NCBI GenBank assembly: GCA_944391115.1
Contig: CALXSJ010000003.1
Location: 167,574 to 231,573, forward strand
Length of the DNA: 64,000 nt
Origin: an uncultured Victivallales bacterium
GTDB lineage: Bacteria; Verrucomicrobiota; Lentisphaeria; Victivallales; UBA1829
Reading direction: 5' to 3'
The notes below the pieces were generated by a model that worked only from the letters and a program-made list of their open reading frames with translations, was not told the DNA's origin and ran no database searches. Made by a program: the position numbers and the translations under genes. Of the stretch, positions 7,943-44,178 are shown piece after piece; positions within the stretch are counted from its first letter, which is position 1; every line of letters begins with the position of its first letter.

Positions 7943-8006
7943 TTCAGAACCTTCTCTGCTTGAAAATCAATTTTCCGCAGGGAAATATTGCAATCCCGTT
8001 TTCTTC

Positions 8007-10859
8007 TCAATATTCCAGATAGAAAATCCGGGTGACTTTTTCGGGAAGTTCCATGGTGAATTCCGTTGTGTTTTCTGCAATTTTTTCCCCGGAAAGCATT
8101 TCCGTGACTTTTACCGCTTTGCGTGGAAGTTTGATATGCTTTTTCCCCGCGGAGGAAGTATGGAGCATCAGGAACGATTCCCCCGGATAAAACACGTCGC
8201 CGCTGTCAATCCAGACATGGATGCCGGCCGATTGCGCCGCTTTCCGAATTTGCTTTCCTGAAATGCCGCCGGGCGAATAAGCGGAACGGAATCCATTCAC
8301 ATCCTTGAATTGCATGGCATTCAGACCTGTTGCACGAAATGACGGGAAATCACTTTTTTTCACGAAATCCAGCCCCGTCAACTGTTTCATGGAATCAAGG
8401 GACACTCCCTGTTCCGTCACATATCCCGGCGCGTAAATCCAAATTGCAGAGGCGTTATTCCTGCGCAATTTGCGGTGGATACATTCCGTTTTTTCGGGGG
8501 TTGACAAAAACTGATTCAGAAAAATATAGAGCTTATAATCCTTCATTTCCGGATTGTCCAGATCATCGGAAAGATAAATATCGCCCGCCAATCCGGAATG
8601 ATGAAGATTCTGCACGGTACCGAAAACAGCAGGTTTCAGGAACGCAGTCGCCCGTTCCGACCAGCAAATACTCTTGTAAGAAGGCTCGTCATAGATCAAG
8701 GCAATATCCGCAGGGGCCCTGCGGGAAACATTCAGAAATTTTTGACCGAGCTCCTGCAGGCGTGCTATTTCATTCATCATCGCTTCCGTATGAAACTGCT
8801 GATCTCCCGCCAAGGCAAACCACCAAACCCCGCTGCCTTTGGTCAGCATATATTCTGTCGTGCGCCGGAAAACTTCAATATTTTCGGATTCGCTTGGAAT
8901 GGTCACGAAATCAAAATCGGCAACTAAATGCGTGCGGTAATCCGCTTCATCCCAGAACATTTTACGGTGAAGCGCGAAGGAACCATTGAAATTTCCGATA
9001 TGGATGCCGGCCTCTCCGCCTTTTCGTTTGCTGTAATCGGTTGGAGTGCAGATAAAATCCACATTTTCATCTCGGAGAATTCCGCTTAAGGCTGAATGCC
9101 CCGAATTCAGCAGGGAACCATAGCCGGAATAGCGTTGCAGCATTTGATAACCATAGAAAAAGCCCACCAGTTTTTTCCCATGGGTCAGTTCCTTTACGAT
9201 TCCGGCCGCATTCTTTACAGAAGAAACCGTAATATTGTTGAGAAAGTCAAGATAATCCAGAATCGGACGAATTTTGCGCATATCACGGAAAAGTCCGTAA
9301 TCCATGCTCAGCCTTGATTCCGGAGAGGGAACCTTCACTTCGGAAAAAGATTTCAATCGGGTTCCCCATGTCCTGTTCAGCTCTGCAACTGTCCGGTATT
9401 TTCTCTCCATGGCATGCGCAAAATCCCGATGCGCAATCTCGGAATAATCCGTCAGTCCGATATCGGTTCCGTGATAATACCATTCGCTGGCCGCTCCTCC
9501 GGCAGGAAGATACCCGATCACATGACCGGCGTAATCGCTTTGCTCAATATGAGTAATCAGATCTCGCAGCATCCGGGAGCAGGACTGTGTCCATTCCGGA
9601 CTGGTAAGACCGCACCAGTATTTGGAACTCCGGTATTTTTTCTGATGAATATCCCAGGCGACAGAAATAAACTGCGGATTTTTCCTGAGCCACCACCACC
9701 AGGGAGTGTCCAGCTTGATTCTGAGGAGAATTTTTGCATTCGGAGACACCTTTGCAATGCTGCGGATATGTTCATCGACTGCCGCAAAATCATATTTTCC
9801 TTCCTCCTGCCACCAGCTGCCTGTTTTCGAATTTTTGTTATTGGTAGAAAGCATGGTGCTGAATAATGTGATTCCCGCGGCTGAAAAGTCCTTGATCGCT
9901 TCATAATTCGATTTTTCCGCCGAAGGCCACAATGCCGCAGGCCGCGGCATGAACATCATGGGATTGATATGTTTCCCATCAATGAATAATTGTGCTTCTC
10001 CCCGCGGAAAGATGATATCCGCAACGGTATTGCCCATCCTTCCGTCAGTCCTGGAAATGCTCCTGGCATATGCGGCCGTTCGTGGTAGAATCTTTTTGAA
10101 ATCAGGGTCAAAATCAGGATGTCTGATTTCAGGAAGCGGACGCTGGTCTTTCAAGGATTCCGAATTCCATATTTTTTTGATTACTGTTCCGGAAAGCGCT
10201 TCCCGAGTGATGGAAACTTTTGCAAAAGCTCCGCGGAACAGATTTGCAAAGCGGTTTCCAAACCGGGCAAATCCGAGGTTCAAAGTATCATCGCAAATCT
10301 TTACGGGATGGGACAGCGGAAGATCCGCCGTCAATATTCCGTTCAGATACAGTTTCACGGAAGAAGGCTCTACTGCCGCAACTGCCCAATTCCAGCGGTT
10401 TTCAACAGGTGAAATTTGATCCGCTTCCGGAAGATAGTGCTCTTTTGCGCAGATTCCATAATATCTGCATGTCTGCTGATTCCACCATTTAAATTCCAAT
10501 CTGGTCTTGTTCAGACCGAAAAAAAAGCCAAGATTATTTTCCGGCGCAAATGGCGTTTTGCCGAAAAGCAGTGCCTCCGGTGCAGAATTCCGGATTCTTT
10601 TATTGGGTGCGAACCAGACCGAGATGGTGAACGTATCCCTGTTTTTCACGTCTTCATCGACAATGATTCGGAATTGCGGCAGATAATTGTCCAAACGTCT
10701 ATCTTTCAGCGATTGCTTGCCGGCGCCAATAACGCCGCGCGGCAGAACACCCTTCGTGAAGTCATATTCTGCGGAGAATAAGTCTGCCGTGCAGACAATC
10801 ATTCCCGCAAATCCCGCTAAAATTCTGGACATCCAGTTTTGCTTCATTCTTATCATCAT
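8007..10859 (-). CDS. secreted LamG-domain + GH42-like (beta-galactosidase-like) glycoside hydrolase candidate
   Basis: 950 aa with a signal peptide (MSRILAGFAGMIVCTADLFSA). LamG-like block (TFTISVWF...VKLYLNGIL). TIM-barrel-like block (WWQEEGKYDFAAVDEHI; FAHAMERKYRTVAELNRTWGT). GH42M-like block (ADIALIYDEPSY; YKLYIFLNQFLS). Confidence 0.55.
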   Translation of the reverse strand: MMIRMKQNWMSRILAGFAGMIVCTADLFSAEYDFTKGVLPRGVIGAGKQSLKDRRLDNYLPQFRIIVDEDVKNRDTFTISVWFAPNKRIRNSAPEALLFGKTPFAPENNLGFFFGLNKTRLEFKWWNQQTCRYYGICAKEHYLPEADQISPVENRWNWAVAAVEPSSVKLYLNGILTADLPLSHPVKICDDTLNLGFARFGNRFANLFRGAFAKVSITREALSGTVIKKIWNSESLKDQRPLPEIRHPDFDPDFKKILPRTAAYARSISRTDGRMGNTVADIIFPRGEAQLFIDGKHINPMMFMPRPAALWPSAEKSNYEAIKDFSAAGITLFSTMLSTNNKNSKTGSWWQEEGKYDFAAVDEHIRSIAKVSPNAKILLRIKLDTPWWWWLRKNPQFISVAWDIHQKKYRSSKYWCGLTSPEWTQSCSRMLRDLITHIEQSDYAGHVIGYLPAGGAASEWYYHGTDIGLTDYSEIAHRDFAHAMERKYRTVAELNRTWGTRLKSFSEVKVPSPESRLSMDYGLFRDMRKIRPILDYLDFLNNITVSSVKNAAGIVKELTHGKKLVGFFYGYQMLQRYSGYGSLLNSGHSALSGILRDENVDFICTPTDYSKRKGGEAGIHIGNFNGSFALHRKMFWDEADYRTHLVADFDFVTIPSESENIEVFRRTTEYMLTKGSGVWWFALAGDQQFHTEAMMNEIARLQELGQKFLNVSRRAPADIALIYDEPSYKSICWSERATAFLKPAVFGTVQNLHHSGLAGDIYLSDDLDNPEMKDYKLYIFLNQFLSTPEKTECIHRKLRRNNASAIWIYAPGYVTEQGVSLDSMKQLTGLDFVKKSDFPSFRATGLNAMQFKDVNGFRSAYSPGGISGKQIRKAAQSAGIHVWIDSGDVFYPGESFLMLHTSSAGKKHIKLPRKAVKVTEMLSGEKIAENTTEFTMELPEKVTRIFYLEY

Positions 10860-10865
10860 CCTGTT

Positions 10866-11660
10866 TTACGGCAATATGCAATAATAAAAACGTCCCCACT
10901 GCCGATATCCGGCCGCATTCGTAAAAGGCCGCAGTGCATATCCGTTTGCCATAGTTGAATTCAATGTGGCCACATGTCCGTCAACCATCAATACATTGGC
11001 TTTCCGGTTATGAATCAAGGATAGTCCGCGTGTAACGGAGCTTGTTCGATAATCAAGCAGTCCAGTATATCCGTCGCTGCTCAAAATCTCAAAATAAAAA
11101 TCAGGACGCTGTTGACTGGTCAGCCAGTTGTCTCCAGTCCAGCCCCAATCGGAAGGCGTGTGAAGCCGGGAAAGAATATATCCGTGATAACTGGAACCTC
11201 CATTCCAGGTAATTGGAGAGAGCTGTGCCAGTCTTCCGCACAGGCCATATGTCTGCAAATATGTTGCCGTGTCGGAAAATTGATTTGACGGACAAAAAAA
11301 TACGTTCTGCTTCCTGGCGGTCAAATCCTTTTTGGTCAAATCCTTTTTTCTGTAAAGGAGAGAAAGAATCCTCCCCCATGGCTGAGCTTCGGAATATTCC
11401 TGTGTCATTTGGGAGGGCGTAATGGAATGATTCTTAAAATCGTCTGCATAATTCTGCAGCATAAGGAAACACTGACGCTGATTGGAAACACAATTTATGG
11501 CATATCCGCGTTTCCTGACGTTACTCAATGCAGGCAACAGCATGCCAGCCAGAATTGCAATGATCGCAATTACGATGAGAAGCTCTATCAAGGTAAATAT
11601 TTTCAATTTCAGTCCTGTATCCTCCCTGCAGCGTCCTTTTTCTTTGAAAAACAATCGCAT
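10866..11660 (-). CDS. prepilin-type N-terminal helix / H-X9-DG family pseudopilin-like protein
   Basis: N-terminal [24 protein letters not shown] and C-terminal [12 protein letters not shown] (exact H-X9-DG). AGGAGG sits 2 nt upstream of the ATG. Confidence 0.85.
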
Positions 11661-11688
11661 CGCCTCCTGATCTTGTTTTCTGTTATCT

Positions 11689-11716
11689 ATTATAATGAAA
11701 AAAACAATTTTGTCAA
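11689..11716 (-). promoter_or_regulatory. consensus sigma70 promoter for the pseudopilin/GH42-like operon
   Basis: On the minus strand, TTGACA (11716-11711), 16 nt, TATAAT (11694-11689). The palindrome TCAATTGA (11713-11720) overlaps the -35. Confidence 0.6.
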
Positions 11717-11727
11717 TTGAACAAAGG

Positions 11728-11756
11728 TTGCAAAACTTGTCTTTATGATGTATTCT
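11728..11756 (+). promoter_or_regulatory. candidate promoter driving leader copy A / AraC gene
   Basis: TTGCAA (11728-11733), 17 nt, TATTCT (11751-11756). The conserved leader begins a few nt downstream. Confidence 0.4.
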
Positions 11757-11761
11757 ATCGA

Positions 11762-11930
11762 ATAAATGAAAGAATGAACAGCCGCGATGCCGCGCATACA
11801 GGGGAATCGGGAAAATTCCCCCTGCGGCGGCCAGTCTTTTTCCGCAGGACCGCGGCAGGACTGGAGTTCCCGCATGAAAGGCGGTTTATGATGCCAAGGC
11901 GCTGCGGTTTCAAAACCGTTTTTTTCTTTT
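11762..11930 (+). ncRNA. candidate structured 5' leader / sRNA, copy A (paralog of 28222-28370)
   Basis: About 82% identity to copy B over the first ~73 aligned nt. Hairpin GGGGAAT/ATTCCCC (11801-11821). Helix CCAGTCTT/AGGACTGG (11831-38/11857-64) enclosing CCGC/GCGG. Ends with a small hairpin plus T7 (11919-11925). Confidence 0.45.
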
Positions 11931-11956
11931 GAATCAACGTCTCTTGGAGAAAAAAT

Positions 11957-12772
11957 ATGTATTTCGCACGCTACCGTTCCATTCCGGCGGATAAGATTCC
12001 GCCGATGCCGCTTGCGCTGAAAGGTGTCGGAAGATATCTGGCATACGCGGGATGGGAGGAAAAGAATGACGGAATTTACCGTCCGCACTGCGGAATGTTC
12101 TGGTGCAGAAGCGGAAAAGCGGCATTCGTAATTGGAACCCGGAATTGTACGCTCGAAGCGGAACAGGCAGTTTATTATTATCCTTTTGAAGCACATAAGA
12201 TTCATGTCATCAGCAGTTCCTTCGATTACTACTGGATGATATTCGACGGAATTGACGCTGCCGGTGTTCTCGGCATGTTCCAATATCCGAGGGAACCGTT
12301 TCACGCAGGTCCGCCGCCCGAAGAAATTTTCCGCCAGGCGTATGAAAGTTTAGAGGGGCTGAGTGATGCTGCTCGTTATCTCAGCGGAGCTCTTGTCTAC
12401 CGGATTCTGTCTCTTGCTGGCTCTCCGGCAGAGGCTCAAAAAGAGAAATCAAAAGAAGCGCATCTTGTTACCCGCTTCAGGCAGATTGTCGCTGAAGAAG
12501 CGGGAAACAGGGAACTGAATCTTATCAAAATTGCGGAACGGCTTCAATGTCATCGGACGACACTGACGCGGCTCGTCAAAAAGGAACTCGGAATCGTTCC
12601 CGCACAGTATCTGAATCATGTACGTCTTCAGAATGCCCTGGAACTGCTGGACAACAGCAATCTGACCGCCGCGGAAATCGGTGAAATCTGCGGATTCGCC
12701 ACACCGGAATATTTTTCCAGAAAGTTCAAGCAGCTCACGGGGGAACCTCCACGGCGTTTCAGGAACCACTGA
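11957..12772 (+). CDS. AraC-family transcriptional regulator
   Basis: 271 aa. C-terminal double HTH (IAERLQCHRTTLTRLVKKELG...; AAEIGEICGFATPEYFSRKFKQLTGEPPRRFR) with an N-terminal cupin-like sensor. Confidence 0.85.
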   Translation: MYFARYRSIPADKIPPMPLALKGVGRYLAYAGWEEKNDGIYRPHCGMFWCRSGKAAFVIGTRNCTLEAEQAVYYYPFEAHKIHVISSSFDYYWMIFDGIDAAGVLGMFQYPREPFHAGPPPEEIFRQAYESLEGLSDAARYLSGALVYRILSLAGSPAEAQKEKSKEAHLVTRFRQIVAEEAGNRELNLIKIAERLQCHRTTLTRLVKKELGIVPAQYLNHVRLQNALELLDNSNLTAAEIGEICGFATPEYFSRKFKQLTGEPPRRFRNH

Positions 12773-13048
12773 ATTCAGAAAGAAAATACGGTTTTCCGGA
12801 ATTGTGAGATTGAAAAATTGCCTGTTCGGACAACCGTGTCATGCAGGGCGGATTCCTAGGGCGGATGTGAACGGGAAATTTTCCTCTGTGCGGAGAGGAC
12901 TGGAAGACCGTGGAAGCGGAGGACGGCGCAAAGCGGACCGGGAATTTTCCGTCATGCTTGCAGCTTCGTCCGGTTCATGTTATATTGCGGCATAGACCGA
13001 TGGAAAACTTTTGCTTCCCATATAGGGATGAAAAAAGGAGAAGGGGCG

Positions 13049-16905: not shown

Positions 16906-17133
16906 CCTGTTTCCTTTCCGATTTGTTCAGGAGTTGCGGAACATTACAGCAGAATGTGCTTCCCTGCAAGAGGGAAACGCCGGAACTGACGGAATCGGAA
17001 CAGATTCCGAACACGTTTCAAATATTTCCCTCCGGCGCCGTCAAAAAAAACGCTTTTTTTACTTTTGACGCATTGAAAACACCGGAAAAGGCGATACCTT
17101 AAATATTCAGATAATAAAACAGGATGTTCAAAT

Positions 17134-17874
17134 ATGAACAACAGGATTCCCGCGGTGGAAAAAACCATTCTCCTGATGGAGCTTCTTGCAAAGTCCCCGG
17201 AAGGCGCGACGCAGTCGGAGCTGAAACGGGAACTGGCCATTTCGATGAGCACGGCTTACCGGATTCTCCAGACGCTGCTGAAACACAAATGGGTCAGAAA
17301 GAACGCGGACGGCGTTTACATGCCGGACAACGGTCTGCTTCCGCTGCTCTGCCGTTTCCGCGACAGCATGGACATTCTGGAACAGGCGCAGCGCGTCATC
17401 GACAAAGTCGCCTCCGCTCATGAAATCGCCTGCAAGCTCTCCATCCGCCGCGGTTCCGAACAGGTGACACTCCTCCGTGCGGAACCTGCGGGGCCTTTTG
17501 CCCTGACCGGGCAGGTCGGCTCGAGTTTTCCCGTGATCGAAGGTTCCGTGGGGGCGGCGCTGCTCTGCGAGGAAAGCGAAGACGAAATTCTGGAGCTTGC
17601 CGGCGAATGCCGCGCGGATCTGCCGGAGAAGCGGGAACCGGAACTTGTGCTGCGGGCGGTCCGGGATGTCCGGGAAAAGGGGTATGCGCTCAATCTCCGC
17701 AGAAACCGCTGGAACATTGCGGCCATGTCGATGCCGGTCCGGAACGCCGGCGGCTCGGTCATCGCCGCTCTTACGCTGATCGGAACGGAATCCGATTTTG
17801 CACCCGGCAGGCGGAAAAAACAGTTGTCGATTCTGGAAAAAGCAGTCCATGACTGTATGAATCATTCATCATAA
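17134..17874 (+). CDS. IclR-family transcriptional regulator
   Basis: N-terminal wHTH (VEKTILLMELLAKSPEGATQSELKRELAISMSTAYRILQTL) plus an IclR-type effector domain. Confidence 0.85.
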   Translation: MNNRIPAVEKTILLMELLAKSPEGATQSELKRELAISMSTAYRILQTLLKHKWVRKNADGVYMPDNGLLPLLCRFRDSMDILEQAQRVIDKVASAHEIACKLSIRRGSEQVTLLRAEPAGPFALTGQVGSSFPVIEGSVGAALLCEESEDEILELAGECRADLPEKREPELVLRAVRDVREKGYALNLRRNRWNIAAMSMPVRNAGGSVIAALTLIGTESDFAPGRRKKQLSILEKAVHDCMNHSS

Positions 17875-17889
17875 ATCAAGGAGAATCCA

Positions 17890-19221
17890 ATGTTCAGCGA
17901 AGAGGCGAAGAGACTTTCCAGGGAAATTCTCGCGGAGAATTCCGAGATCGATTTCCGGATCCGGACCGGAACGGAGATGTACCGGAAAGGATTCGGGCAT
18001 TTCCTGCTTACGGACGCGGCGGGAAAGGAACTGCCCGGCGCGACGGTCCGCCTGAAACAGAAAACGCATGAATACAAATTCGGCTGCAACGCCTTCATGA
18101 TCGATTCCTTCCCGGAAAAGGAGCAGAACGAACGCTACGAGGAGGTGTTCGCCTCCCTGTTCAACCTTGCCGTCGTTCCGTTCTACTGGAGCGATCTGGA
18201 ACCGGAGCCGGGAAAAGAGCGTTTCGCCAGGGACAGTTCCTTCTGCTACCGCCGTCCCGCGCCCGACCGGGTTCTGGAATTCTGTGAAAAACACGGCATC
18301 ACCCCGAAGGGACATCCGCTCTGCTGGCATCTTTTCTGGCCGGAATGGATTCCGAACAACACCGTCGACAACATGCGTTTCCTGCGGAACCGCATCGAGC
18401 GGATCGCCGCGCGCTATAAAGACCGGATTCCGATCTGGGACGTGGTCAACGAGGCGCAGTCGCGCCATCCCGCCTGCCGCACGGACATTCCCGTGTTTCC
18501 GGATGATTACGTGGAGCGCGTCTTCCGTATGGCGGAGCGCTTCCTGCCGGACTGCCGGAAAATTTACAATGACGACAGTACCTGGTGGAACTGGCAGGGC
18601 GACTACTCTCCCTCCTACCGCCTGATCCGTCGCCTTCAGGAGCGCGGCTGCAGCGTGGACGGAATCGGAGTTCAGTATCATATGTTTGAAAACATGCTCG
18701 GAGACCGCTGCTGCGGCGTCAACCGCCCGCTGACCCCGCGATGCATCCTGAAGTGTCTGGACCAGTACCGGAAACTGGATATTCCGGTCAATTTCTCCGA
18801 GGTCAGCATCATCAGCCGGCGCGATCTCGGCGACGGCGACACCTTTCAGGAGCTGGTCGCGGAAAAGCTCTACCGCCTCTGGTTCAGCCATCCCGCGACC
18901 GAGGCCATCATCTGGTGGAACCTTGTCGACGGAACCGGCGCCTACGCGCCGCTCGGAAGCGAGAAAGGGGAAAACGCTCTTCGAGCGGGTCTGGTCAACT
19001 ACGACTTCACCCCCAAAGCGGCTTTCCTGGCTCTCGAACGCCTCATCCGGAAGGAGTGGCATACGGAATGCGTGCTGGAATACCGGGCGGGCGGGGATAA
19101 CCGCTTCCACGGCTTCTACGGGCAGTACGAGGCGGAAATTGAAACGGAGAGCGGAAAAGTCACCCTGCCTGTTTCGCTCAGCAAGTTCTCCGAAAACGAA
19201 TTCAGGATTGCAGTCAAATAA
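17890..19221 (+). CDS. GH10-family glycoside hydrolase (xylanase-like), cytoplasmic, paralog 1
   Basis: WDVVNEA (acid/base Glu) and VNFSEVSI (nucleophile Glu position). YWSDLEPEPGKERF. No signal peptide. Confidence 0.8.
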   Translation: MFSEEAKRLSREILAENSEIDFRIRTGTEMYRKGFGHFLLTDAAGKELPGATVRLKQKTHEYKFGCNAFMIDSFPEKEQNERYEEVFASLFNLAVVPFYWSDLEPEPGKERFARDSSFCYRRPAPDRVLEFCEKHGITPKGHPLCWHLFWPEWIPNNTVDNMRFLRNRIERIAARYKDRIPIWDVVNEAQSRHPACRTDIPVFPDDYVERVFRMAERFLPDCRKIYNDDSTWWNWQGDYSPSYRLIRRLQERGCSVDGIGVQYHMFENMLGDRCCGVNRPLTPRCILKCLDQYRKLDIPVNFSEVSIISRRDLGDGDTFQELVAEKLYRLWFSHPATEAIIWWNLVDGTGAYAPLGSEKGENALRAGLVNYDFTPKAAFLALERLIRKEWHTECVLEYRAGGDNRFHGFYGQYEAEIETESGKVTLPVSLSKFSENEFRIAVK

Positions 19222-19233
19222 AGGAAACGGAAC

Positions 19234-20556
19234 ATGAACGGAACAATCGACCCGTCCACACTCAGAATCACGGACATGCGGTTCGCCGACATCGACGGCG
19301 CGCCGAAACGCTGCACGCTCATCAAGCTCTACACCAACCAGGGACTTGTCGGATACGGCGAGGTACGCGACGCGTCAAGCCGGACTTATGCCGCGATGCT
19401 CAAGAGCCGCATTCTCGGGGAGAATCCCTGCAACGTGGAGAAAATCTTCCGGCGGATCAAGCAGTTCGGCGGAGATTCGCGTCAGGCGGGCGGCGTCTGC
19501 GGAATTGAAGTCGCTCTGTGGGACCTCGCAGGAAAGGCATGGGGCGTTCCCGTCTGGCAGCTTCTCGGCGGAAAGTTCCGCGACCGGATCCGGATTTACT
19601 GCGACACGGATTCCGAAGGCGGCGGGCGCGATATGGGAAAAGCCCTCAAGGAGCGCATGGCGCAGGGCTACACCTTCCTGAAAATGGATCTCGGGATTGA
19701 ACTCCTGATGGATGTCCCCGGCGCGCTTTCCGCCCCGCTCGGTTTCCTGGAGAAAATGCGCGAATACAAGAAGACGGTCTTTTCGACGCCGCACGGTTCG
19801 ATCGACCCGCGCGCGATGCGCGGCGAGGCTTACGATCTCTTCAACACCGCGCATCCGTTCACGGGAATCCACATCACGGAAAAGGGGCTGGATTATCTGG
19901 AGCAGTACATGGCCGACTGCCGCGCCGTCACGGGGTATGAAATCCCGATCGCGATCGATCATCTGGGGCATATCCCGCTGGAGGACTGCATCAAGCTTGC
20001 GAAACGGCTCGAGAAGTTCAATCTCGCCTGGATGGAGGATCCCGTTCCGTGGCAGATGACGAATCAGTATGTGCGTCTCGCGAACGCCACGACGGTCCCG
20101 GTCGGCACCGGAGAGGACATGTATCTCAAGGAGTCGTTCCGGCCGCTGCTGGAATCCGGCGCGCTTGCCGTGATCCATCCCGACGTCCTGAGCGCCGGCG
20201 GCATTCTCGAAACGAAGAAGATCGGCGACATGGCCGAGGAGTGCGGTGTCCAGATGTCGATTCACATGGCGGAGAGCCCGATTGCCTGCATGGCCGCCGT
20301 TCACGTCGCCGCCGCGACGCGCAACTTCATGGCGCTTGAGGTGCATTCCGTCGATGTTCCGTGGTGGGCGGATCTCGTGGTCCCGCGTCTTGAGATCCGG
20401 GACGGCTATATCGCCGTGCCGGACAAGCCCGGACTGGGAATCGACGGACTCAACGAGGATCTGATTGCGGAAAAACTCCATGGAGATTTCCCCGTCGCCT
20501 GGGAATCCACGGAACAGTGGGACAAGGAATGGGCGAACGACCGGCAGTGGTCATGA
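19234..20556 (+). CDS. enolase-superfamily (mandelate racemase/muconate lactonizing enzyme family) sugar-acid dehydratase candidate
   Basis: 440 aa. GYGEVRD capping region and metal-ligand-like AIDHLG / AWMEDP / GTGED blocks. Confidence 0.8.
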   Translation: MNGTIDPSTLRITDMRFADIDGAPKRCTLIKLYTNQGLVGYGEVRDASSRTYAAMLKSRILGENPCNVEKIFRRIKQFGGDSRQAGGVCGIEVALWDLAGKAWGVPVWQLLGGKFRDRIRIYCDTDSEGGGRDMGKALKERMAQGYTFLKMDLGIELLMDVPGALSAPLGFLEKMREYKKTVFSTPHGSIDPRAMRGEAYDLFNTAHPFTGIHITEKGLDYLEQYMADCRAVTGYEIPIAIDHLGHIPLEDCIKLAKRLEKFNLAWMEDPVPWQMTNQYVRLANATTVPVGTGEDMYLKESFRPLLESGALAVIHPDVLSAGGILETKKIGDMAEECGVQMSIHMAESPIACMAAVHVAAATRNFMALEVHSVDVPWWADLVVPRLEIRDGYIAVPDKPGLGIDGLNEDLIAEKLHGDFPVAWESTEQWDKEWANDRQWS

Positions 20557-20580
20557 TTTCCGGAAAAAAAGGATGCGTTT

Positions 20581-21912
20581 ATGAGCAGTCGAAGCGAAGT
20601 GCTGAAGCCCTTTGAACGCAAAAAGGCGTTCATGGAGGACCGGATCGAACACGGGATCGAACTGTACCGGAAGGGATTTGCCTTCCTGCATTTCCGGGAT
20701 GCCATGGAGCGTCCCGTCCGCGGCGTGCGTGTGCACATCCGCCAGAAATCGCATGACTTCCGGTACGGCGCGAATCTTTTCATGCTCGGGGAATTCGATT
20801 CCTCCGAACAGAACGCGGCATACGAAAGTCTGTTCGCGGATGCGTTCAACATCGCGACCCTTCCGTTCTACTGGAGCGATCTTGAGCCCGAGCCGGGGAA
20901 GCCGCGCTTTGCCAAAGACAGCCCGAAACGCTACCGGCGGCCCGCTCCCGATCTCTGCCTCGAATACTGCGAGGCCAGGGGAATCGAACCCAAGGCGCAC
21001 TGTCTGAACTACGCCGCCTTCCATCCGGAATGGGCAAAAGGGGATGTGATGACGGAGAAGCGGCTCCTCGACAAGCGTTTCCGCGAACTTGCCGCGCGTT
21101 ATTCCGAACGCATTCCGAGCTGGGAGGTCACGAACGAAACTTTCTGGGGGATGCGGATTCCCCGCTATTCCGAACTGTACCGGCAGGACGATCTGATCGA
21201 ATGGAGTTTTGCGGAGGCCGAACGCCATTTCCCCATGAACCGCTTGATTATCAACGAGGCGCACTGCCGCATCTGGGGGCCGGATTATTTTTACGGGACG
21301 CGCAGTCCCTATTACATGCAGATCGAACGCGCGCTCCGCTCCGGCAGACGCATCGACAGCATCGGCATGCAGTTCCACATGTTCTACCGCGCGGAGGAGG
21401 AGATCGCGCAAACCGCCGTCTACTATGATCCGGAACGGATTTACGACGTGCTTGACACGTACGCGAAACTCGGGAGGAGGATCCAGCTGACGGAACTGAC
21501 GATTCCCGCCTACACGCGCGAAGCGGAGGATGAGGCGCTTCAGGCCGAAATTCTCCGGAATCTCTACAGCATGTGGTTCAGCCATCCCGCCATGGAGGGG
21601 ATCATTTACTGGAACCTCGTGGACGGATTCGCCGCATGCGCGGCGCAGGGGGATATGACGGCGGGGGAAAATTACTATCACGGCGGTCTTGTCCGTCATG
21701 ACTTTACGCCGAAGGAGGCATACCGCGTGATCCGGGATCTTTTCTCAAAGACCTGGCACACGGAACTGACGCTTGAAACCGATACGGACGAACTCGATTT
21801 CAAGGGGTTTTACGGCGTTTACGAGCTGGAAATTGAAGCGGGCGGGAAAACTGTCCGGCGGGAAATCCATCTGAACAGGGACAGCAACAGCTGTTTCCAT
21901 ATTGTGATCTGA
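20581..21912 (+). CDS. GH10-family glycoside hydrolase, cytoplasmic, paralog 2
   Basis: WEVTNET and IQLTELTI catalytic blocks. YWSDLEPEPGKPRF is nearly identical to paralog 1. No signal peptide. Confidence 0.8.
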   Translation: MSSRSEVLKPFERKKAFMEDRIEHGIELYRKGFAFLHFRDAMERPVRGVRVHIRQKSHDFRYGANLFMLGEFDSSEQNAAYESLFADAFNIATLPFYWSDLEPEPGKPRFAKDSPKRYRRPAPDLCLEYCEARGIEPKAHCLNYAAFHPEWAKGDVMTEKRLLDKRFRELAARYSERIPSWEVTNETFWGMRIPRYSELYRQDDLIEWSFAEAERHFPMNRLIINEAHCRIWGPDYFYGTRSPYYMQIERALRSGRRIDSIGMQFHMFYRAEEEIAQTAVYYDPERIYDVLDTYAKLGRRIQLTELTIPAYTREAEDEALQAEILRNLYSMWFSHPAMEGIIYWNLVDGFAACAAQGDMTAGENYYHGGLVRHDFTPKEAYRVIRDLFSKTWHTELTLETDTDELDFKGFYGVYELEIEAGGKTVRREIHLNRDSNSCFHIVI

Positions 21913-22111
21913 ACGGAAGGAGAGCGGGAGAGATGCTGTCACGGAAAGAGTGGAACGGAAATGTCCGGGAAGTCGGGATCCGCTTTCCGGCACGCCCGTC
22001 TTGTGCCGGTGACAGGTTTCCGGGGCCATCCCGCGGAAATCCCCCTGCCGTCAGAAGCGTCCGCGGCATATCCGGAAGCTTGAATTTCTTCTTAAGACAG
22101 GAGTGACAGAC

Positions 22112-23602
22112 ATGACCACCTATCAGGAACCGCAGGTTTCCGGGGAAGAGATTGATGCGGCATTTTCAGATGCCTACAGAAAGCTCTGGAACGAGGACGA
22201 ACAGCGCAGGATTGACGCGGACATCGAAAAGAACCGCAAGGCGGACGGAGAATTTCAGCTGCCCGCTTCCGCCGCGGGGCGCGAAGTCCGGGCCGAACAG
22301 CTTTCCCACGACTTCATCTTCGGCGCGCACATCTTCAACTTCGATCAGCTCGGCAGCGACGAGCGCAACGCCCGCTACCGGGAACTCTACGGGACGCTCT
22401 TCAATTCCGCGACGATCGCATTCTACTGGAAGACGCTCGAGCCTGAAGAAGGGCATCCCCGTTTCCAGGCCGGATACCGCGATACCGCGGAGTTCTGGAA
22501 TCATTGCCCGGAACCGAACAGTCAGCCGCACTGGCGGCGTCCGGCTGTCGATCCCGTCGTGGAATTCTGCCGTTCGAAAGGAATCCGCCTGCACGGACAC
22601 ACGCTTGTCTGGGGAAACAACACCTGGCAGATTCCGGACTGGCTCATCAACCGGATTCCGTTCGACTATCTGAAAAAGGCGAACCTGGAACGCAATCCGG
22701 TGAATCACACGCTTCCGGGCAATGCGACCGCTCATGCGTTTGAAGAAATGAGCGTCCGGGAAATGGAGGAGGCTCTTCCGGAATATGCGACGCTCATCAA
22801 TACGCTCATGGCAAAACGCATCATTGAAATTGCGATGCGTTACGGCGACAAGGTGGACAGCTGGGACGTTGTCAATGAGAGCTCTGTGGATTTCGGACCG
22901 GGCCTGATGGTTCCCGGTTCGAAGCTCTGCAAAAGCGCTTACGGCCCGATGCCGGGGGACTACGCATACCGGGGATTCAAGTTCGCCGAAGGCGTGCTTC
23001 CTCCGCAGGCGAAACTCAATATCAACGATTACAATCTCTGCGATGCCTACGCGGACCAGGTGAACGATCTGCGGGCGCGCGGCTGCCGGATCGACATCAT
23101 GGGCGCGCAGATGCATCTCTTCAATCCGCAGACCTGCCTGGACATCGCCGAGGGCAGGAGTCTCGTTCAGTCTCCGGACAAAGTGCGCGAGTCCATGAAA
23201 TGCATCGGCCGCGCCGGACTGCCGATTCATCTTTCCGAAATCACGATCACTTCGCCCGGCAGCGGCCGGCACGGACAGATTGTGCAGGCGGGAATCGCCC
23301 GCAATCTCTACCGTCTCTGGTTCAGCCTTGAACCGATGATGGGAATCACATGGTGGAATGTCGTGGACGGCTGCGGCGCCCCGGGCGAACCGGCGGCCTC
23401 CGGGCTTTTCACGCGGGAGATGGAACCGAAACTTTCATACTTCGCACTGGAAAAACTGATTCTTCACGAATGGCGCACCCGTCTGGTCCTCACTGCGGAC
23501 GCGGAGTCGCACGTGGCCTTCCGCGGGTTCCGCGGCCGTTACCGGCTCGCCTGGACCGGAGCGGACGGCCGTGAAGAGTCCATGATTTGTCACTTGAAAT
23601 AA
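22112..23602 (+). CDS. GH10-family glycoside hydrolase, cytoplasmic, paralog 3
   Basis: WDVVNES and IHLSEITI. ATG at 22112 has AGGAG 8 nt upstream, whereas the ORF track begins at the GTG at 22103. No signal peptide. Confidence 0.8.
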   Translation: MTTYQEPQVSGEEIDAAFSDAYRKLWNEDEQRRIDADIEKNRKADGEFQLPASAAGREVRAEQLSHDFIFGAHIFNFDQLGSDERNARYRELYGTLFNSATIAFYWKTLEPEEGHPRFQAGYRDTAEFWNHCPEPNSQPHWRRPAVDPVVEFCRSKGIRLHGHTLVWGNNTWQIPDWLINRIPFDYLKKANLERNPVNHTLPGNATAHAFEEMSVREMEEALPEYATLINTLMAKRIIEIAMRYGDKVDSWDVVNESSVDFGPGLMVPGSKLCKSAYGPMPGDYAYRGFKFAEGVLPPQAKLNINDYNLCDAYADQVNDLRARGCRIDIMGAQMHLFNPQTCLDIAEGRSLVQSPDKVRESMKCIGRAGLPIHLSEITITSPGSGRHGQIVQAGIARNLYRLWFSLEPMMGITWWNVVDGCGAPGEPAASGLFTREMEPKLSYFALEKLILHEWRTRLVLTADAESHVAFRGFRGRYRLAWTGADGREESMICHLK

Positions 23603-23624
23603 ACAACCGCAAGGAGGATATGTT

Positions 23625-24380
23625 ATGCCGTCACTCAAAGACATGAGAGGAAAAGCCAAGGAAGCCGGACTGATGAAACTGGACAAGCTCATTGCGACGC
23701 GCCAGCGCATTCCGGACTGCACGTTCCCCGTTCCGGTGAAGGAACTCTGCGAACGCTATGAAAAACTTTACACCGGGTGCATCAACGACGTGATGCGCGA
23801 ACTCTGTCTGCTGAACCAGAATCTTCCCTCGGACATCATGCCGCTGCGCGACGAAATGACCGTCTGCGGCGAGGCGTTCACAGTGAAAAGCGCCCCCAAC
23901 GTCATGATCGAAGGCGAAATGACGTTCCGCGCGCAGATGCTTGACGACTTCAAGCCCGAGGGCGTTGTTGTCTGGGACACATCCGAGGATACCGAGGCCT
24001 CCCTCTGGGGCGGCGTCATGACCGCGACCGCGATCACCAAGGGCATCCGCGGCGCCGTGATCGCCGGCGGCATCCGCGACACCAGGCAGATTCTCGAACA
24101 GAAGTTTCCCGTCTTTTACAAATACCGCACCAGCAACGGTTCGCTCGGGCGCTGCATGATTACGCATTATCAGGTTCCCGTCCGGATCGGCAAGGTCACG
24201 GTCCGTCCCGGCGACATCATCTTCGGAGACATCGACGGCGTCCTCTGCATCCCCCGGGAGATCGCCTACGACGTGCTGCTCCGGGCCGAGGGAATCGAAC
24301 GCAACGAGATCGACATCTTCTCCTGGGTCCGGCAGGGCGACACCATTTCCGAAATTATCGACAAGGGCGGATACTTCTGA
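23625..24380 (+). CDS. RraA-family protein / class II pyruvate aldolase (HMG/CHA-aldolase-like)
   Basis: GGVMTATAITKGIRGAVIAGGIRD block typical of the RraA/aldolase family. AAGGAGG RBS. Confidence 0.75.
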   Translation: MPSLKDMRGKAKEAGLMKLDKLIATRQRIPDCTFPVPVKELCERYEKLYTGCINDVMRELCLLNQNLPSDIMPLRDEMTVCGEAFTVKSAPNVMIEGEMTFRAQMLDDFKPEGVVVWDTSEDTEASLWGGVMTATAITKGIRGAVIAGGIRDTRQILEQKFPVFYKYRTSNGSLGRCMITHYQVPVRIGKVTVRPGDIIFGDIDGVLCIPREIAYDVLLRAEGIERNEIDIFSWVRQGDTISEIIDKGGYF

Positions 24381-24430
24381 GGAAAAAGTCCGCGGATGCG
24401 GATTCCTGCCAATGAGAGAAAGGAAGAGGC

Positions 24431-25183
24431 ATGTTGAAGCAATATTTCAGTCTGAGCGGGAAAAAGGCGCTTGTCACAGGTTCCAGCCGGGGAATCGGGC
24501 GTTCCATTGCAATGCTGCTCGGGGAGGCCGGGGCGGAGGTCTGGTTTCATGCCAGTTGCCCTTCCGCGGTTCTTGATTCGACGATCGCCGAAGCGTCCCG
24601 GCGGAACATCGCGTGCCGCTCCGTCACGGCGGACCTTTCCGCTTTGGAGGGGGTCGGACAGCTCGTCCATGCGGTGCGCGAATGCGACATCCTGATCCTG
24701 AACGCGTCCGTTCAGAGCTACCGGACGCTGGACGATTTCGATCCGGAGGAGTTTGCGCGCGAATTCAACACCAATGTGCGCGCCTCCTTTGCCCTTGTCC
24801 GGGCGTTTCTGCCGGGCATGCGCAACCGCGGATTCGGGCGCATTGTCACGATCGGCAGCGTCAACCAGTGGAAGCAGTCGCCCCGGCTCAGCATTTACGC
24901 CGCAACGAAGTCCGCGCAGGCGAACATGATTATGAACTGCGCCCGCACTTCGGCGGAATTCGGCGTGACTGCGAACAACATCGCGCCCGGCGTCATTGCC
25001 ACGGACCGGAACCGCGAGGCGCTCGGCGATCCCGCCGCGGCTCAGAGGATTCTGGAGCAGATTCCCGCCCGGCGTTTCGGCACTCCCGACGATTGCGCGG
25101 GAATAGTGCTTCTGCTCTGCTCCGAAGCGGGAAGCTACATCACGGGAGCGGACATTCCCGTGGCCGGCGGGATGCAGCTGTAG
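24431..25183 (+). CDS. SDR-family oxidoreductase
   Basis: TGSSRGIGRSIA (TGxxxGxG) and YAATKSA (YxxxK). Confidence 0.9.
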   Translation: MLKQYFSLSGKKALVTGSSRGIGRSIAMLLGEAGAEVWFHASCPSAVLDSTIAEASRRNIACRSVTADLSALEGVGQLVHAVRECDILILNASVQSYRTLDDFDPEEFAREFNTNVRASFALVRAFLPGMRNRGFGRIVTIGSVNQWKQSPRLSIYAATKSAQANMIMNCARTSAEFGVTANNIAPGVIATDRNREALGDPAAAQRILEQIPARRFGTPDDCAGIVLLLCSEAGSYITGADIPVAGGMQL

Positions 25184-28418: not shown

Positions 28419-29117
28419 ATGAAAATCAATCCGGTCAGACGGAAAAGCGCTCTGGATTGCGCCATTGACGCGATCCGTTCGTATATCCTTGACAACCGTC
28501 TGCAGCCCGGAGATGTCCTTCCTCCTGAAACGGAACTCGCCCGCGAACTGGAAATCAGCCGCAATATTCTCCGCGAGGCGATGCGCCATTACCGCACGCT
28601 CGGGATCATTGATTCGAAGCCGAAGCTCGGCGCCGTGATCGTTCGCCTTGTCCCGGAGAATCCTTATGCGGGCTATCAGCCTTTTCTTGCCGCGGGAGAG
28701 AATTCCCTGCGCGAACTTTTTGAAATGCGGAGCAGTCTGGAAACCGGAGCCGCTCCGTTTCTGGTACGGGCCGTGACGCCGGAGACGCTCGCTTCGCTCG
28801 GGGAAATTGTGGACGAGATGAGACGGGAAAAACGCGAAGAGCATTTCACTGCGCTCGACATGCGTTTTCATACGGAACTGCTGCATGCGATGCGCAACCG
28901 GATTCTCGACGGGCTTCTACCGTTCGTGATCGGTTTTTTCTACGAACTCAGGAAAGAGAAGATCGCCCGCGGATGGAAACGGAAACCCCGCAGGGAGATT
29001 CTGGAGGAACACCGTGCCATCCTCGCCGCCCTGGAACGGCGTGACGCCGCCGGGCTGGCCGCGGAGATCGCCCGGCATAACGAAGTCTATTTCAACATTC
29101 TGAAGATCGGCGGATGA
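28419..29117 (+). CDS. GntR-family (FadR-subfamily) transcriptional regulator
   Basis: LPPETELARELEISRNILREAMRHYRTLGII wHTH plus an all-helical FCD-like C-terminus. ATG at 28419 is preceded by AAGGAG; the ORF track starts earlier at 28332. Confidence 0.85.
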   Translation: MKINPVRRKSALDCAIDAIRSYILDNRLQPGDVLPPETELARELEISRNILREAMRHYRTLGIIDSKPKLGAVIVRLVPENPYAGYQPFLAAGENSLRELFEMRSSLETGAAPFLVRAVTPETLASLGEIVDEMRREKREEHFTALDMRFHTELLHAMRNRILDGLLPFVIGFFYELRKEKIARGWKRKPRREILEEHRAILAALERRDAAGLAAEIARHNEVYFNILKIGG

Positions 29118-29137
29118 TTCCGGCCGGAAAGGAGAAC

Positions 29138-29944
29138 ATGAACATTCCGAGAAAAAGTCGTGTCCTGACGAAGATGCGCGCAGGACGGAAAGCCATATGC
29201 TACAAGTTCAATCTGTCCTGTCCGCGGGCTGTCGAGATTGCGGGACTTGCCGGTTTTGACGCAGTCTGGATCTGCCAGGAGCACGTTCCGACCGGCCGGA
29301 ACACGATGGAAATGCAGATTCTGGCCGCCAGAGCCTATGACATGGACTGCATCGTGCGCGTGGCAAAGGGAAGTTACAGCGACTGGATTCTGCCGCTGGA
29401 GGCGGACGCATCCGGAATCATGATCCCTCATCTGATGAGTCTGGAGGAGGCAAAGGAAATTGTCCATACGACCCGTTTTCAGCCGCTCGGACGCAGACCC
29501 GTTGACGGCGGGAACGCCGACGGACTCTACTGCCGGCTTGATTTCCGGGATTACATCCGTTTCGCCAATGAAAACCGCATGGTGATCGTCCAGATTGAAG
29601 ATCCCGAACCCCTGGCCGAACTGGATGCCATCTGCCGTCTTCCCGGCATCGACATGATTTTTTTCGGTCCCGGGGACTTCAGTCATGCGATCGGATGTCC
29701 GGGGGAGCTCGATCATCCTGAAATCCGCCGCGTCCGCCGCCTGATTGCCGAAACCGCGCACAAATACGGGAAATTTGCCGGCACCGTCACTTCCCCGGCC
29801 TCCATGCGTGAGTATTACGCGATGGGGTATGATTTCCTGAACTGCGGCGCGGATGTCGTCGCGCTCGGTGCGGCCTGCGACTCCGTCATCGCCGCTTATC
29901 AGGATGCGGCCGGGGAAAAGGAGTGCGCCGGAGGTGCGGAATAA
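29138..29944 (+). CDS. HpcH/HpaI-family aldolase (2-keto-3-deoxy-sugar-acid aldolase-like)
   Basis: VQIEDPEPLAELDAICRLPGIDMIFFGPGDFSHAIG, typical of class II HpcH/HpaI aldolases. AAGGAG lies just upstream of the ATG at 29138. Confidence 0.75.
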   Translation: MNIPRKSRVLTKMRAGRKAICYKFNLSCPRAVEIAGLAGFDAVWICQEHVPTGRNTMEMQILAARAYDMDCIVRVAKGSYSDWILPLEADASGIMIPHLMSLEEAKEIVHTTRFQPLGRRPVDGGNADGLYCRLDFRDYIRFANENRMVIVQIEDPEPLAELDAICRLPGIDMIFFGPGDFSHAIGCPGELDHPEIRRVRRLIAETAHKYGKFAGTVTSPASMREYYAMGYDFLNCGADVVALGAACDSVIAAYQDAAGEKECAGGAE

Positions 29945-30069
29945 TCCGTGCGGAACAAGCTGGCGGAAACATGCGCGCGGGGAGGAAGAATTCCGGAAAA
30001 AAACCTCGTTTTTGATTTGCACTGCACCGCTCTTATGGTAAATTGTGTGCAAAACCAAGGAGTTTCTTC

Positions 30070-36166: not shown

Positions 36167-36309
36167 GTTCCCGATATCCTGTCTCTGAATGAAGTTTCGC
36201 TGGTAATATACTTCATTCCCGGAAAAAACCAATTCCCGGCGGCAAAAATATCGGAAGGGAGTTTTCTTCCGGGTTCTCCGGGAAGGATCGGAGCGTCTGC
36301 GCATGCGCT

Positions 36310-42319: not shown

Positions 42320-42339
42320 GAATTCCTCCATTATCTGTT

Positions 42340-43074
42340 TTACGGGATCTGCAGCGGCACCGCGTCTCCTGTCGTCCAGTAGAATATCTTCGAGCCGACG
42401 GTTGTTTTCCCGTTCAGGTCTTTGAAATTATGCCATTTGACGCTGAAGTCCGGCATGACCCAGCCGGAACCCTCCGGATGATTGACGAAGTGAGGTCCTC
42501 CGGTATTCAGGATATACTGATCTCCCGCAAGCGGCACAACGTCGAATTTTTTCGAGAAGCTGTTCCATTGCGGGCGGTTCCGTTTCAGGGGATTGGTGAC
42601 GTTCCAGCGGTCCCAGTTGGAGGTGGAGCCGATTCCCGCGAGAAGCATATAGCAGGTCCGGTTTCCCTTTTCATGTTCGCTTGCTCCGTCCGGCATGTGG
42701 AAGGCTGGGCATTTCAGAAGCCCCTCACGCGCCTCCTTCATGGAATAGGCGATGCTGTAATGAAGATAGGTTTTGACGAAATAATAAAGGCCGCTCATGG
42801 GTTCGCCGCTGTTTCCCCTCCGCCAGTCGCACGGATCGTTTGCCGTTGCGCCGGGATTCGGAAAATAGTCGTTCCAGTCATTGGCGTAGTTCAGCAGACT
42901 GAGTCCGACCTGCCGCAGATTGCCCGTGCAGGCCGTCCGCAGGGCCTTGCTTCTGGCTTTTCCGAGAGCGGGAAGAAGAAGTCCGGCAAGAATTACAATG
43001 ATTGATATGACAACAAGAAGTTCTATCAGCGTAAATGAATTTCTTTTCATGTTGTTCAACTCCTTTCCTTTCAT
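42340..43074 (-). CDS. prepilin-type N-terminal helix / H-X9-DG family pseudopilin-like protein (variant H-X9-DF)
   Basis: [24 protein letters not shown] and C-terminal [15 protein letters not shown] at 43074 overlaps the upstream stop (TGATG). An alternative ATG at 43050 ([12 protein letters not shown]) has AAGGAG 9 nt upstream. Confidence 0.8.
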
Positions 43075-44078: not shown

Positions 44079-44150
44079 TCGAACTCCATTTTATTATTCT
44101 GACATATAAAAATATGGATAAAATATATTTTTATTTATGTCACAAGGGTA

Positions 44151-44178
44151 ATTATATGATATTTTGGGCATTTGTCAA
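44151..44178 (-). promoter_or_regulatory. consensus sigma70 promoter for the regulator/pseudopilin/CAZyme operon (module 2)
   Basis: On the minus strand, TTGACA (44178-44173), 16 nt, TATAAT (44156-44151). Confidence 0.6.

Follow-up and report, generated by a model that had tools for sequence, protein, structure and literature searches.

A recurrent gene cassette joining cytoplasmic GH10 proteins to a candidate non-phosphorylative sugar-acid route in Victivallales and other bacteria

Cytoplasmic glycoside hydrolases (GHs) of family GH10 and oxidative pathways for pentoses and hexoses are well known, but each separately. Here we analyze a seven-gene cassette in which the two are physically coupled. 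It lies in a stretch of 64,000 nucleotides (nt) from an uncultured Victivallales bacterium (contig CALXSJ010000003.1, positions 167,574–231,573 of the forward strand; this whole stretch is called the window) and comprises genes for an IclR-family regulator, three GH10 proteins (GH10a, GH10b, and GH10c), a candidate enolase-superfamily sugar-acid dehydratase (ENOL), an RraA-like protein, and an SDR oxidoreductase. What is new is the physical coupling, with a bacterial enolase-superfamily dehydratase and an RraA-like protein that would act at the 2-keto-3-deoxy step, in gut-derived Lentisphaerota and in Clostridia, which are assumed to be anaerobes. A literature search found no publication describing the cassette. 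As a whole, it can be read as an IclR-controlled operon that combines GH10 trimming with a non-phosphorylative oxidative sugar-acid route, a scheme for which we see the case as evenly balanced.

Among the described GH10 enzymes, AcXyn10A (PDB entry 8B73), XynA of Bacillus sp. KW1 (BsXyn10; 7D88), and Fsa02490Xyn resemble GH10a in joining the GH10 barrel to a beta-sandwich. AcXyn10A and XynA are the best matches of GH10a over nearly its full length, and both catalytic glutamates are shared, although the identity amounts to only 22–25%. Unlike the window proteins, Fsa02490Xyn carries a twin-arginine (TAT) signal and is secreted, and none of the three enzymes has been reported together with a sugar-acid gene set. 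A second group, consisting of IXT6 of Geobacillus stearothermophilus, XynB of Paenibacillus barcinonensis, and Xanthomonas XynA (4PMU), has no signal peptide, as is the case here, but shows only ~19–20% identity and lacks the accessory beta-sandwich of GH10a. Enzymes of this type finish imported xylo-oligosaccharides in the cytoplasm, and the reducing-end exo-oligoxylanase 4PMU illustrates that a GH10 enzyme can release xylose. Instead of an oxidative route, their genetic surroundings provide ABC transporters and a xylose isomerase or uronate isomerase pathway. An earlier interpretation of the same DNA, made from the letters alone and referred to below as the sequence-only reading, had presented cytoplasmic GH10 proteins as unusual. 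This was overstated, because intracellular enzymes such as IXT6 and XynB are well known and their structures have been solved.

The logic of the remaining genes resembles that of the Dahms and Weimberg pathways (Caulobacter xylXABCD, Haloferax volcanii) and of the promiscuous non-phosphorylative Entner-Doudoroff (npED) pathway of Sulfolobus and Thermoplasma, which likewise have no kinase. Known aldolases of the Dahms and npED routes belong to the DHDPS/NAL or HpcH type. The archaeal npED dehydratases belong to the enolase superfamily, like ENOL, whereas the bacterial pentonate dehydratases are IlvD/EDD proteins. These pathways occur in aerobes and, unlike the cassette, are not known to be coupled to glycoside hydrolase genes. 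The Dahms and Weimberg logic runs from an aldose 1-dehydrogenase via a lactonase and an aldonate dehydratase to the cleavage or further dehydration of a 2-keto-3-deoxy acid.

For the RraA-like protein, the closest described systems are HMG/CHA aldolase (3NOJ) and FlDet, which have the RraA fold, an Arg-Asp pair, and 4-hydroxy-2-oxo acid substrates, as is presumed for the protein studied here. Their contexts, which are aromatic catabolism for HMG/CHA aldolase and alginate catabolism for FlDet, differ from that of the cassette. The cassette regulator belongs to the same family as the KdgR-type IclR proteins but matches them weakly (5e-13; 48.8 bits against a cut-off of 275 bits). KdgR-type proteins regulate 2-keto-3-deoxy-acid pathways and bind AT-rich palindromic operators of the TTTCA/TGAAA type. 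A further difference from the KdgR type is that the candidate operator of the cassette overlaps the start codon of its own regulator gene.

Layout and conservation of the cassette

The sequence-only reading had described a co-directional cluster of three GH10 genes with a dehydratase, an RraA-like protein, an SDR, and an IclR regulator. This arrangement was confirmed, with seven open reading frames (ORFs), all located on the + strand and assigned by Pfam, that together span positions 17134–25183 of the window:

17106–17138, + strand: candidate IclR operator, a double site conserved upstream of the IclR genes of the cassettes
17134–17874, + strand: IclR-family transcription regulator, 246 amino acids (aa), with HTH_IclR and IclR_C (Pfam)
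17890–19221, + strand: GH10a, 443 aa, PF00331 at 112 bits against a cut-off of 22.1
19234–20556, + strand: ENOL, candidate sugar-acid dehydratase of the enolase superfamily (MR/MLE), 440 aa, with MR_MLE_N and MR_MLE_C
20581–21912, + strand: GH10b, 443 aa, lineage b, PF00331 at 78.5 bits against a cut-off of 22.1
21913–22111, + strand: spacer between GH10b and GH10c, 199 nt, no recognised element
22112–23602, + strand: GH10c, lineage c, 496 aa from the ATG at 22112 (499 aa from the GTG at 22103), PF00331 at 108.9 bits against a cut-off of 22.1
23625–24380, + strand: RraA-like protein, 251 aa, PF03737 at 114 bits
24431–25183, + strand: classical SDR oxidoreductase, 250 aa, with adh_short and adh_short_C2

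The gaps between the genes measure 12–50 nt, except for the 199 nt that separate GH10b from GH10c. The seven genes form a discrete unit, since the LOG-type gene that precedes them and the LPG_synthase_C gene that follows are both encoded on the other strand. The cluster contains no kinase gene. Consistent with the sequence-only reading, it also contains no transporter gene, and the window genes that were checked did not include a classical sugar transporter either. A metagenome-assembled genome (MAG) of an uncultured Victivallales bacterium carries a locus with 98% identity to that of the window, and proteins identical to GH10a are encoded, in the same gene order, on several metagenome contigs from ENA and Logan. 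A haloarchaeal origin of the DNA, which had been considered due to a weak HVO_A0261_N match, was rejected because the proteins are non-acidic and because of the 98% match to the Victivallales MAG.

We scanned a family alignment against one genome per species, kept the best 80 loci, and mapped the seven window proteins onto them. Approximately 30 of these 80 loci hold IclR, ENOL, one to three GH10 genes, the RraA-like gene, and the SDR gene in varying order, with the SDR gene being present in nearly all cassettes. The carriers were Lentisphaeria/Victivallales and MAGs labeled Planctomycetota or Planctomycetaceae, and the cassette is also present in a MAG that has been attributed to Victivallis vadensis, a species in culture (locus L024). 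In uncultured Clostridia, the arrangement ENOL-SDR-GH10-RraA, in part extended by a lactonase and a further GH10 gene, is located next to an AraC regulator. A reverse search that started from RraA-like homologues found a GH10 gene adjoining the RraA-like gene in all three loci recovered (3/3); it led back to the cassette gene set, except that one of the three, a Kiritimatiellae locus, lacks ENOL. The recurrence of the same gene content in shuffled order strongly suggests a functional link between the GH10 proteins and the dehydratase/RraA-like/SDR set. Clustering of all ORFs from the 80 loci revealed no conserved transporter, and the only recurrent families from outside the cassette were prepilin-like proteins, AraC/IclR regulators, and large proteins without assigned function.

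This synteny practically excludes a chance adjacency of genes that share neither function nor regulation, as the gene content is kept in ~30 loci over several labeled phyla despite the shuffling. The short gaps at all other gene borders and the conserved cis-element upstream of the cassette also speak against it. The 199-nt gap in front of GH10c could hold a promoter of its own, which would favor chance adjacency, but a consensus scan found no + strand promoter and, within the spacer, no site resembling a promoter or terminator on this strand; the scan for promoters and terminators performed no better than on shuffled sequence. The spacer is GC-rich and is absent from those loci of other species in which GH10b and GH10c abut. 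It contains short imperfect inverted repeats, but its predicted RNA fold (21913–22111) did not exceed that of shuffled sequence (z = −0.33), and an Rfam scan of the region from 16 to 26 kb (E ≤ 1) yielded zero matches, spacer included, and thus no riboswitch.

The cassette proteins differ in their degree of conservation. The median pairwise identity among cassettes was 82% for ENOL and 89% for the RraA-like protein (range 79–100% for either protein), compared with 62% for GH10, 53% for the SDR, and 50% for IclR. The best 120 homologues of the RraA-like protein were all at least 82% identical. Possible reasons for the slow evolution of ENOL and the RraA-like protein are a strong constraint, for example in a protein complex, or an additional role. 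The different constraints suggested by the medians for ENOL, the RraA-like protein, and GH10 would also fit a model in which the GH10 proteins are ordinary intracellular enzymes for xylo-oligosaccharides, the xylose is passed to an unlinked isomerase and kinase, and ENOL, the RraA-like protein, and the SDR act on an unrelated sugar acid, with only the regulator being shared. In favor of this model, IXT6 and XynB feed the isomerase pathway, and about half of the GH10a-type homologues reside outside cassettes. However, a GH10 gene was found beside the RraA-like gene in 3/3 loci, including one without ENOL, the GH10 lineages b and c are nearly confined to cassettes, and the same gene content is found under a different regulator in Clostridia. 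We regard an association through the regulator alone as quite improbable.

The regulator carries PF09339 (HTH_IclR) and PF01614 (IclR_C) above the respective cut-offs but does not reach the cut-off of any named NCBIfam equivalog, with KdgR and PcaR among those compared. IclR is the first cassette gene in more than 18 related loci. Upstream of it, the window contains two TTCA-N4-(T/A)(G/T)AA sites located 21 nt apart, TTCAGATAATAA (17106–17117) and TTCAAATATGAA (17127–17138), the second of which overlaps the IclR ATG. The pattern TTCAaAtaatAA-N9-TTCAAATATGAAC was found upstream of IclR in all 21 cassette loci examined. In each of these 21 loci, the 12-mer overlapping the start codon had at most one mismatch, whereas the upstream half-site was more variable and the rest of the intergenic region was not conserved. 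In most relatives, a promoter resembling TTGACA-N16/17-TATAAT precedes the double-site pattern. These features make the double site a strong candidate operator for autoregulation by IclR, and its conservation in 21/21 loci lends weight to the control of the cluster by IclR that the sequence-only reading had proposed. The 12-mer does not occur elsewhere in the 64-kb window, and further regulon members or a transporter could thus not be traced in this way.

The three GH10 proteins

All three proteins score above the PF00331 cut-off, in agreement with their earlier assignment to GH10. The AlphaFold2 (AF2) model of GH10a (pLDDT 94.3) consists of a (beta/alpha)8 barrel and a beta-sandwich formed by the strands at residues 33–60 and 393–441, and the best 50 Foldseek matches of this model in the PDB were all GH10 structures. 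According to both Foldseek and sequence, AcXyn10A (8B73) and XynA (7D88) are closest to GH10a, followed by classical GH10 enzymes including IXT6, XynB, and 4PMU. Both catalytic Glu blocks are kept in all three proteins, as the sequence-only reading had recognized: the acid/base blocks are WDVVNE (GH10a), WEVTNE (GH10b), and WDVVNE (GH10c), and the nucleophile blocks are FSEVS, LTELT, and LSEIT, respectively. In GH10a numbering, N187, E188 (acid/base), and E304 (nucleophile) are invariant in an alignment of 44 sequences that includes all three paralogs, and in GH10a they align with the catalytic residues of Thermotoga TmxB (1VBR). GH10c differs from GH10a and GH10b by two large insertions. The three proteins are predicted to be retaining glycosidases with an architecture of the AcXyn10A/XynA type.

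Ahead of the first possible start codons of the three GH10 genes, the frame is interrupted by stops at distances of 5, 8, and 30 codons. The N-termini of the proteins carry charges and are integrated into the fold. Their longest run without a charged or strongly polar residue comprises 7 residues at most, and none of 120 homologues has a hydrophobic N-terminus. Because the upstream stops preclude any extension and a hydrophobic N-terminal segment is missing, the sequences leave no room for a signal peptide in GH10a, GH10b, or GH10c. Hence, the absence of signal peptides noted by the sequence-only reading also withstands a revision of the start codons. In line with a cytoplasmic location, a lone homologue in a Paenibacillaceae MAG follows a two-component system and an ABC sugar-uptake operon.

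The sequence-only reading had further called the three proteins tandem paralogs, a misleading term for genes that are not recent tandem duplicates. The pairwise identities are 42% for GH10a and GH10b, 32% for GH10a and GH10c, and 29% for GH10b and GH10c, and in a neighbour-joining tree of all GH10 ORFs from the 80 related loci they represent three old lineages. Lineage b, which includes members from Clostridia and Paenibacillaceae, is mostly found within cassettes, and lineage c nearly exclusively so. As each lineage is retained across genera, non-redundant roles can be argued for, and the three distinct specificities suggested by the sequence-only reading are plausible. Outside cassettes, genes of the GH10a lineage were seen in two settings, either beside an AraC-like regulator and a ~707-aa protein without assigned function or directly 3' of a second IclR-like regulator (both settings among loci L017, L018, L022, L027, L028, and L035, and L020, L021, and L023). 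These genes look like further regulator-GH10 modules.

The glycone site of classical GH10 enzymes consists of His80, Trp84, Gln203, His205, and Trp273 (Cex numbering), together with Glu43-Asn44-Lys47 on strand beta2. In the family studied here, the −1 subsite residues His142, Asn187, Gln262, His264, and Trp343 are invariant, and Trp146 is nearly so (Tyr in GH10b). The Glu-Asn-x-x-Lys segment of strand beta2 is replaced by PFYW (AFYW in GH10c), a segment also present in AcXyn10A. The leading candidate substrates are xylo-oligosaccharides, with xylose as the leading guess for the released sugar. The proteins may instead belong to GH10 by fold without being directed at xylan and may hydrolyze another beta-glycoside, such as a gluco-, galacto-, or arabinopyranosyl-configured substrate or a small glycoside; the sugar would then be, for example, galactose or L-arabinose, processed via a galactonate-type dehydratase. 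This alternative concerns only the identity of the sugar. It would fit the identity of ~23–25% to proven xylanases, the replaced sugar-binding segment on beta2, the galactonate dehydratase family as best NCBIfam match of ENOL, the free recruitment of GH113 and GH13-like enzymes by the cassettes, and the size (more than 1,100 proteins) and separate position of the GH10 clade. However, PFYW occurs in AcXyn10A as well, which was deposited as a beta-1,4-xylanase, and XynA/BsXyn10 and Fsa02490Xyn, which have the same accessory-domain architecture, are active xylanases. In addition, most −1 subsite residues are kept, and a distant GH10 protein of Clostridium termitidis (GH10_dist) shows weak p-nitrophenyl-beta-xylosidase activity, although a further homology search meant to link it to the present clade retrieved no named cultured organism among the matches. 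Taken together, we consider a substrate other than xylan unlikely, but a serious contender.

The sugar-acid enzymes and the proposed route

The metal-ligand motifs AIDH, WMEDP, and GTGED of ENOL align with AIDMHG, WLEEP, and GEN of its closest PDB entry, 2QQ6 (Asp/Glu/Glu); the nearest structures carry no assigned function. Among the NCBIfam dehydratase families, ENOL matches those for galactonate (2e-61), gluconate/galactonate (3e-51), and mannonate (ManD, 1e-41) much better than that for glucarate (1e-7). It remains below the cut-offs of all NCBIfam equivalogs, with PRK14017 (galactonate) being the best at 208 against 311 bits, and thus falls into no named iso-functional dehydratase family. 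On the basis of these matches, ENOL is a candidate sugar-acid dehydratase. The SDR contains the motifs TGSSRGIG (aa 16–23) and YAATK (aa 156–160) and matches adh_short with 1.4e-36. Its matches were to generic SDR proteins only and assigned no substrate; within the proposed route, it would be an aldose 1-dehydrogenase.

The closest solved structure to the RraA-like protein is 5IR2 (E = 1e-89 over 218 aligned residues). This entry was deposited as 'Cellulase', and a literature search on 5IR2 and on RraA together with cellulase found no paper; the name may go back to a functional screen or to a GH10 gene ('cellulase family F') that was adjacent or fused. The similarity to HMG/CHA aldolase 3NOJ is distant (E = 6e-11). 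The GGIRD motif of the RraA-like protein aligns with AGVRD of 3NOJ (Arg123/Asp124), and Asp102 of 3NOJ is replaced by Gly in both the RraA-like protein and 5IR2. In HMG/CHA aldolase, Arg123 is reported to be catalytic, Asp124 a metal ligand, and Asp102 a second-shell residue (Wang et al., 2010). FlDet, a 237-aa RraA-like enzyme that works with the SDR FlRed, converts 2-keto-3-deoxy-glucarate to alpha-ketoglutarate semialdehyde as a dehydratase/decarboxylase. Given this activity, RraA-like enzymes can be taken to act on 2-keto-3-deoxy sugar acids, although not necessarily as aldolases, and the presumed substrate of the RraA-like protein of the cassette is a 2-keto-3-deoxy acid, which it would process as an aldolase or by some other chemistry. 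Of the RraA-type class II aldolase proposed by the sequence-only reading, the RraA part is borne out by the profile match, whereas the aldolase part, for which the Arg123/Asp124 pair speaks, is called into question by the Gly at the position of Asp102 and by FlDet, which is no aldolase. A second candidate aldolase for 2-keto-3-deoxy acids, of the HpcH/HpaI type (class II pyruvate aldolase), is encoded ~3–5 kb downstream of the cassette, together with a GntR/FCD regulator and followed by an esterase (~28420–29950 for the group).

In the relatives, additional genes are inserted into the cassette. Besides GH113 and a GH13-like protein, these encode an MBL-fold hydrolase of ~265 aa, an esterase of the dienelactone hydrolase (DLH) type, a beta-propeller lactonase (PF10282), a short UxuA-like mannonate dehydratase, whose gene adjoins that of GH113 in three loci, and a protein of ~685–730 aa without any match in Pfam, NCBIfam, or the PDB. 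With MBL, DLH, and PF10282, lactonase-type genes of three non-homologous folds have been recruited to one core. This is the best evidence for a lactone intermediate, which in turn implies that the SDR would oxidize C1 of a sugar. No sugar-acid kinase or transporter was present in the cassettes inspected, and together with the lactonases this supports the oxidative, non-phosphorylative logic that the sequence-only reading had put forward. The Haloferax pentonolactonase does not serve as a precedent of the MBL fold in this argument, since a review of the Dahms and Weimberg enzymes assigns the pentonolactonases to the SMP30 family. The ~685–730-aa protein is absent from the window and recurs inside related cassettes (L009:16788–18989, L074:3562–5661, L084:5396–7594, L088:11920–13974, and L089:6909–8966), with the Kiritimatiellae locus from the reverse search among its carriers. 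Possibly, this protein is a further pathway enzyme that has so far escaped description.

Alternatively, the genes could serve an oxidative route for uronates or aldarates. Here, the SDR would be a uronate (or DEHU-type) dehydrogenase, the lactonase or ENOL would convert the aldarolactone or aldarate to 2-keto-3-deoxy-glucarate, the RraA-like protein would act like FlDet, and the GH10 proteins would trim oligosaccharides bearing uronic acids, such as aldouronic acids from glucuronoxylan. FlDet has exactly this activity and is paired with an SDR, and the RraA-like protein lacks the aldolase Asp102 equivalent. Moreover, the enolase superfamily includes galactarolactone cycloisomerase (4GGB/4HPN), which ENOL matches with 6.5e-28, some cassettes contain the UxuA-like gene from a family of uronate catabolism, and polysaccharide-lyase genes flank one cassette. 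However, neither an alpha-ketoglutarate-semialdehyde dehydrogenase (ALDH) nor an alpha-glucuronidase was found in the cassettes inspected, ENOL scores far higher against aldonate than against aldarate dehydratases, and the position of the UxuA-like gene next to GH113 in three cassettes fits mannose oxidation better. A uronate or aldarate route thus appears improbable.

In the oxidative sugar-acid scheme that we propose, an unlinked transporter would import beta-linked oligosaccharides, which the three cytoplasmic GH10 proteins would hydrolyze. The SDR would oxidize the released aldose at C1 to an aldonolactone, which would open spontaneously in the window cassette and by means of the encoded lactonase in the relatives. 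ENOL would then dehydrate the aldonate to a 2-keto-3-deoxy-aldonate, and the RraA-like enzyme would cleave this compound into pyruvate and an aldehyde, resulting in a route of the Dahms or non-phosphorylative Entner-Doudoroff type that proceeds without phosphorylation. IclR would bind the double site over its own start codon and would probably respond to a pathway intermediate. The scheme gains from the recruitment of further cytoplasmic GHs (GH113 and GH13-like) and of the UxuA-like mannonate dehydratase to the core in relatives.

Several observations weigh against this scheme. The window cassette itself contains no lactonase, no enzyme for handling the aldehyde product is encoded nearby, and an ATP-poor oxidative route would be odd for a fermenting anaerobe. 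The RraA-like protein deviates from HMG/CHA aldolase by the Gly in place of Asp102, and RraA is absent from the review of the Dahms and Weimberg enzymes, which lists IlvD/EDD proteins, not members of the enolase superfamily, as the bacterial pentonate dehydratases. The Kiritimatiellae locus keeps the RraA-like and GH10 genes but has no ENOL. With regard to the glycosidases, GH10a shows only 23–25% identity to characterised xylanases, and the beta2 segment of classical GH10 enzymes is replaced. As the cassette also lacks a beta-xylosidase, a monosaccharide would be released only if one of the GH10 proteins acts in exo mode.

In a more specific form of the scheme, the conserved pair of ENOL and the RraA-like protein would be the core of an undescribed oxidative non-phosphorylative route, in which the RraA-like protein represents a new type of 2-keto-3-deoxy-aldonate aldolase. 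This route would be dedicated to the product of a distinct clade of cytoplasmic GH10 proteins, whose substrate is maybe not xylan, and would be present in Lentisphaerota from gut and sediment, in Planctomycetota-labeled MAGs, and in Clostridia, all assumed to be anaerobic. We put this forward as a tentative proposal that leans toward the doubtful side.

If the scheme holds true, common but hardly studied gut bacteria (Victivallales/Lentisphaeria and some Clostridia) would degrade an imported glycan via an oxidative sugar-acid route of a kind described to date mostly in aerobes and archaea. A new role in sugar-acid metabolism would be added for the RraA fold, whose members frequently bear the wrong annotation of RNase E regulator or methyltransferase. 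A defined physiological context would also emerge for the large GH10 clade, whose more than 1,100 sequences carry the blanket annotation 'endo-1,4-beta-xylanase'. The cultured species Victivallis vadensis may allow a direct test of the model. The cassette also offers candidate enzymes for the cell-free conversion of hemicellulose sugars by a Dahms-type route.

Other features of the window

A stretch of low GC content (46–48% compared with ~57% elsewhere) at ~8000–12800 encodes a 950-aa protein with GH42 and Laminin_G_3, a 264-aa ORF, and an AraC regulator. It is also present on contigs L001 and L002, whereas L003 contains a LacI gene and a peptidase M24 gene between valS and a 308-aa gene. This difference marks the low-GC stretch as a strain-variable insertion. 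The regions at ~36300–49300 and 60494–62965 encode large DUF4838 proteins, a CBM9 protein, a protein with prepilin-type N-methyl and SBP_bac_10 features, and GntR/AraC regulators. In other Victivallales loci, prepilin-like proteins are the most common non-cassette family in the vicinity of the GH10 homologues.

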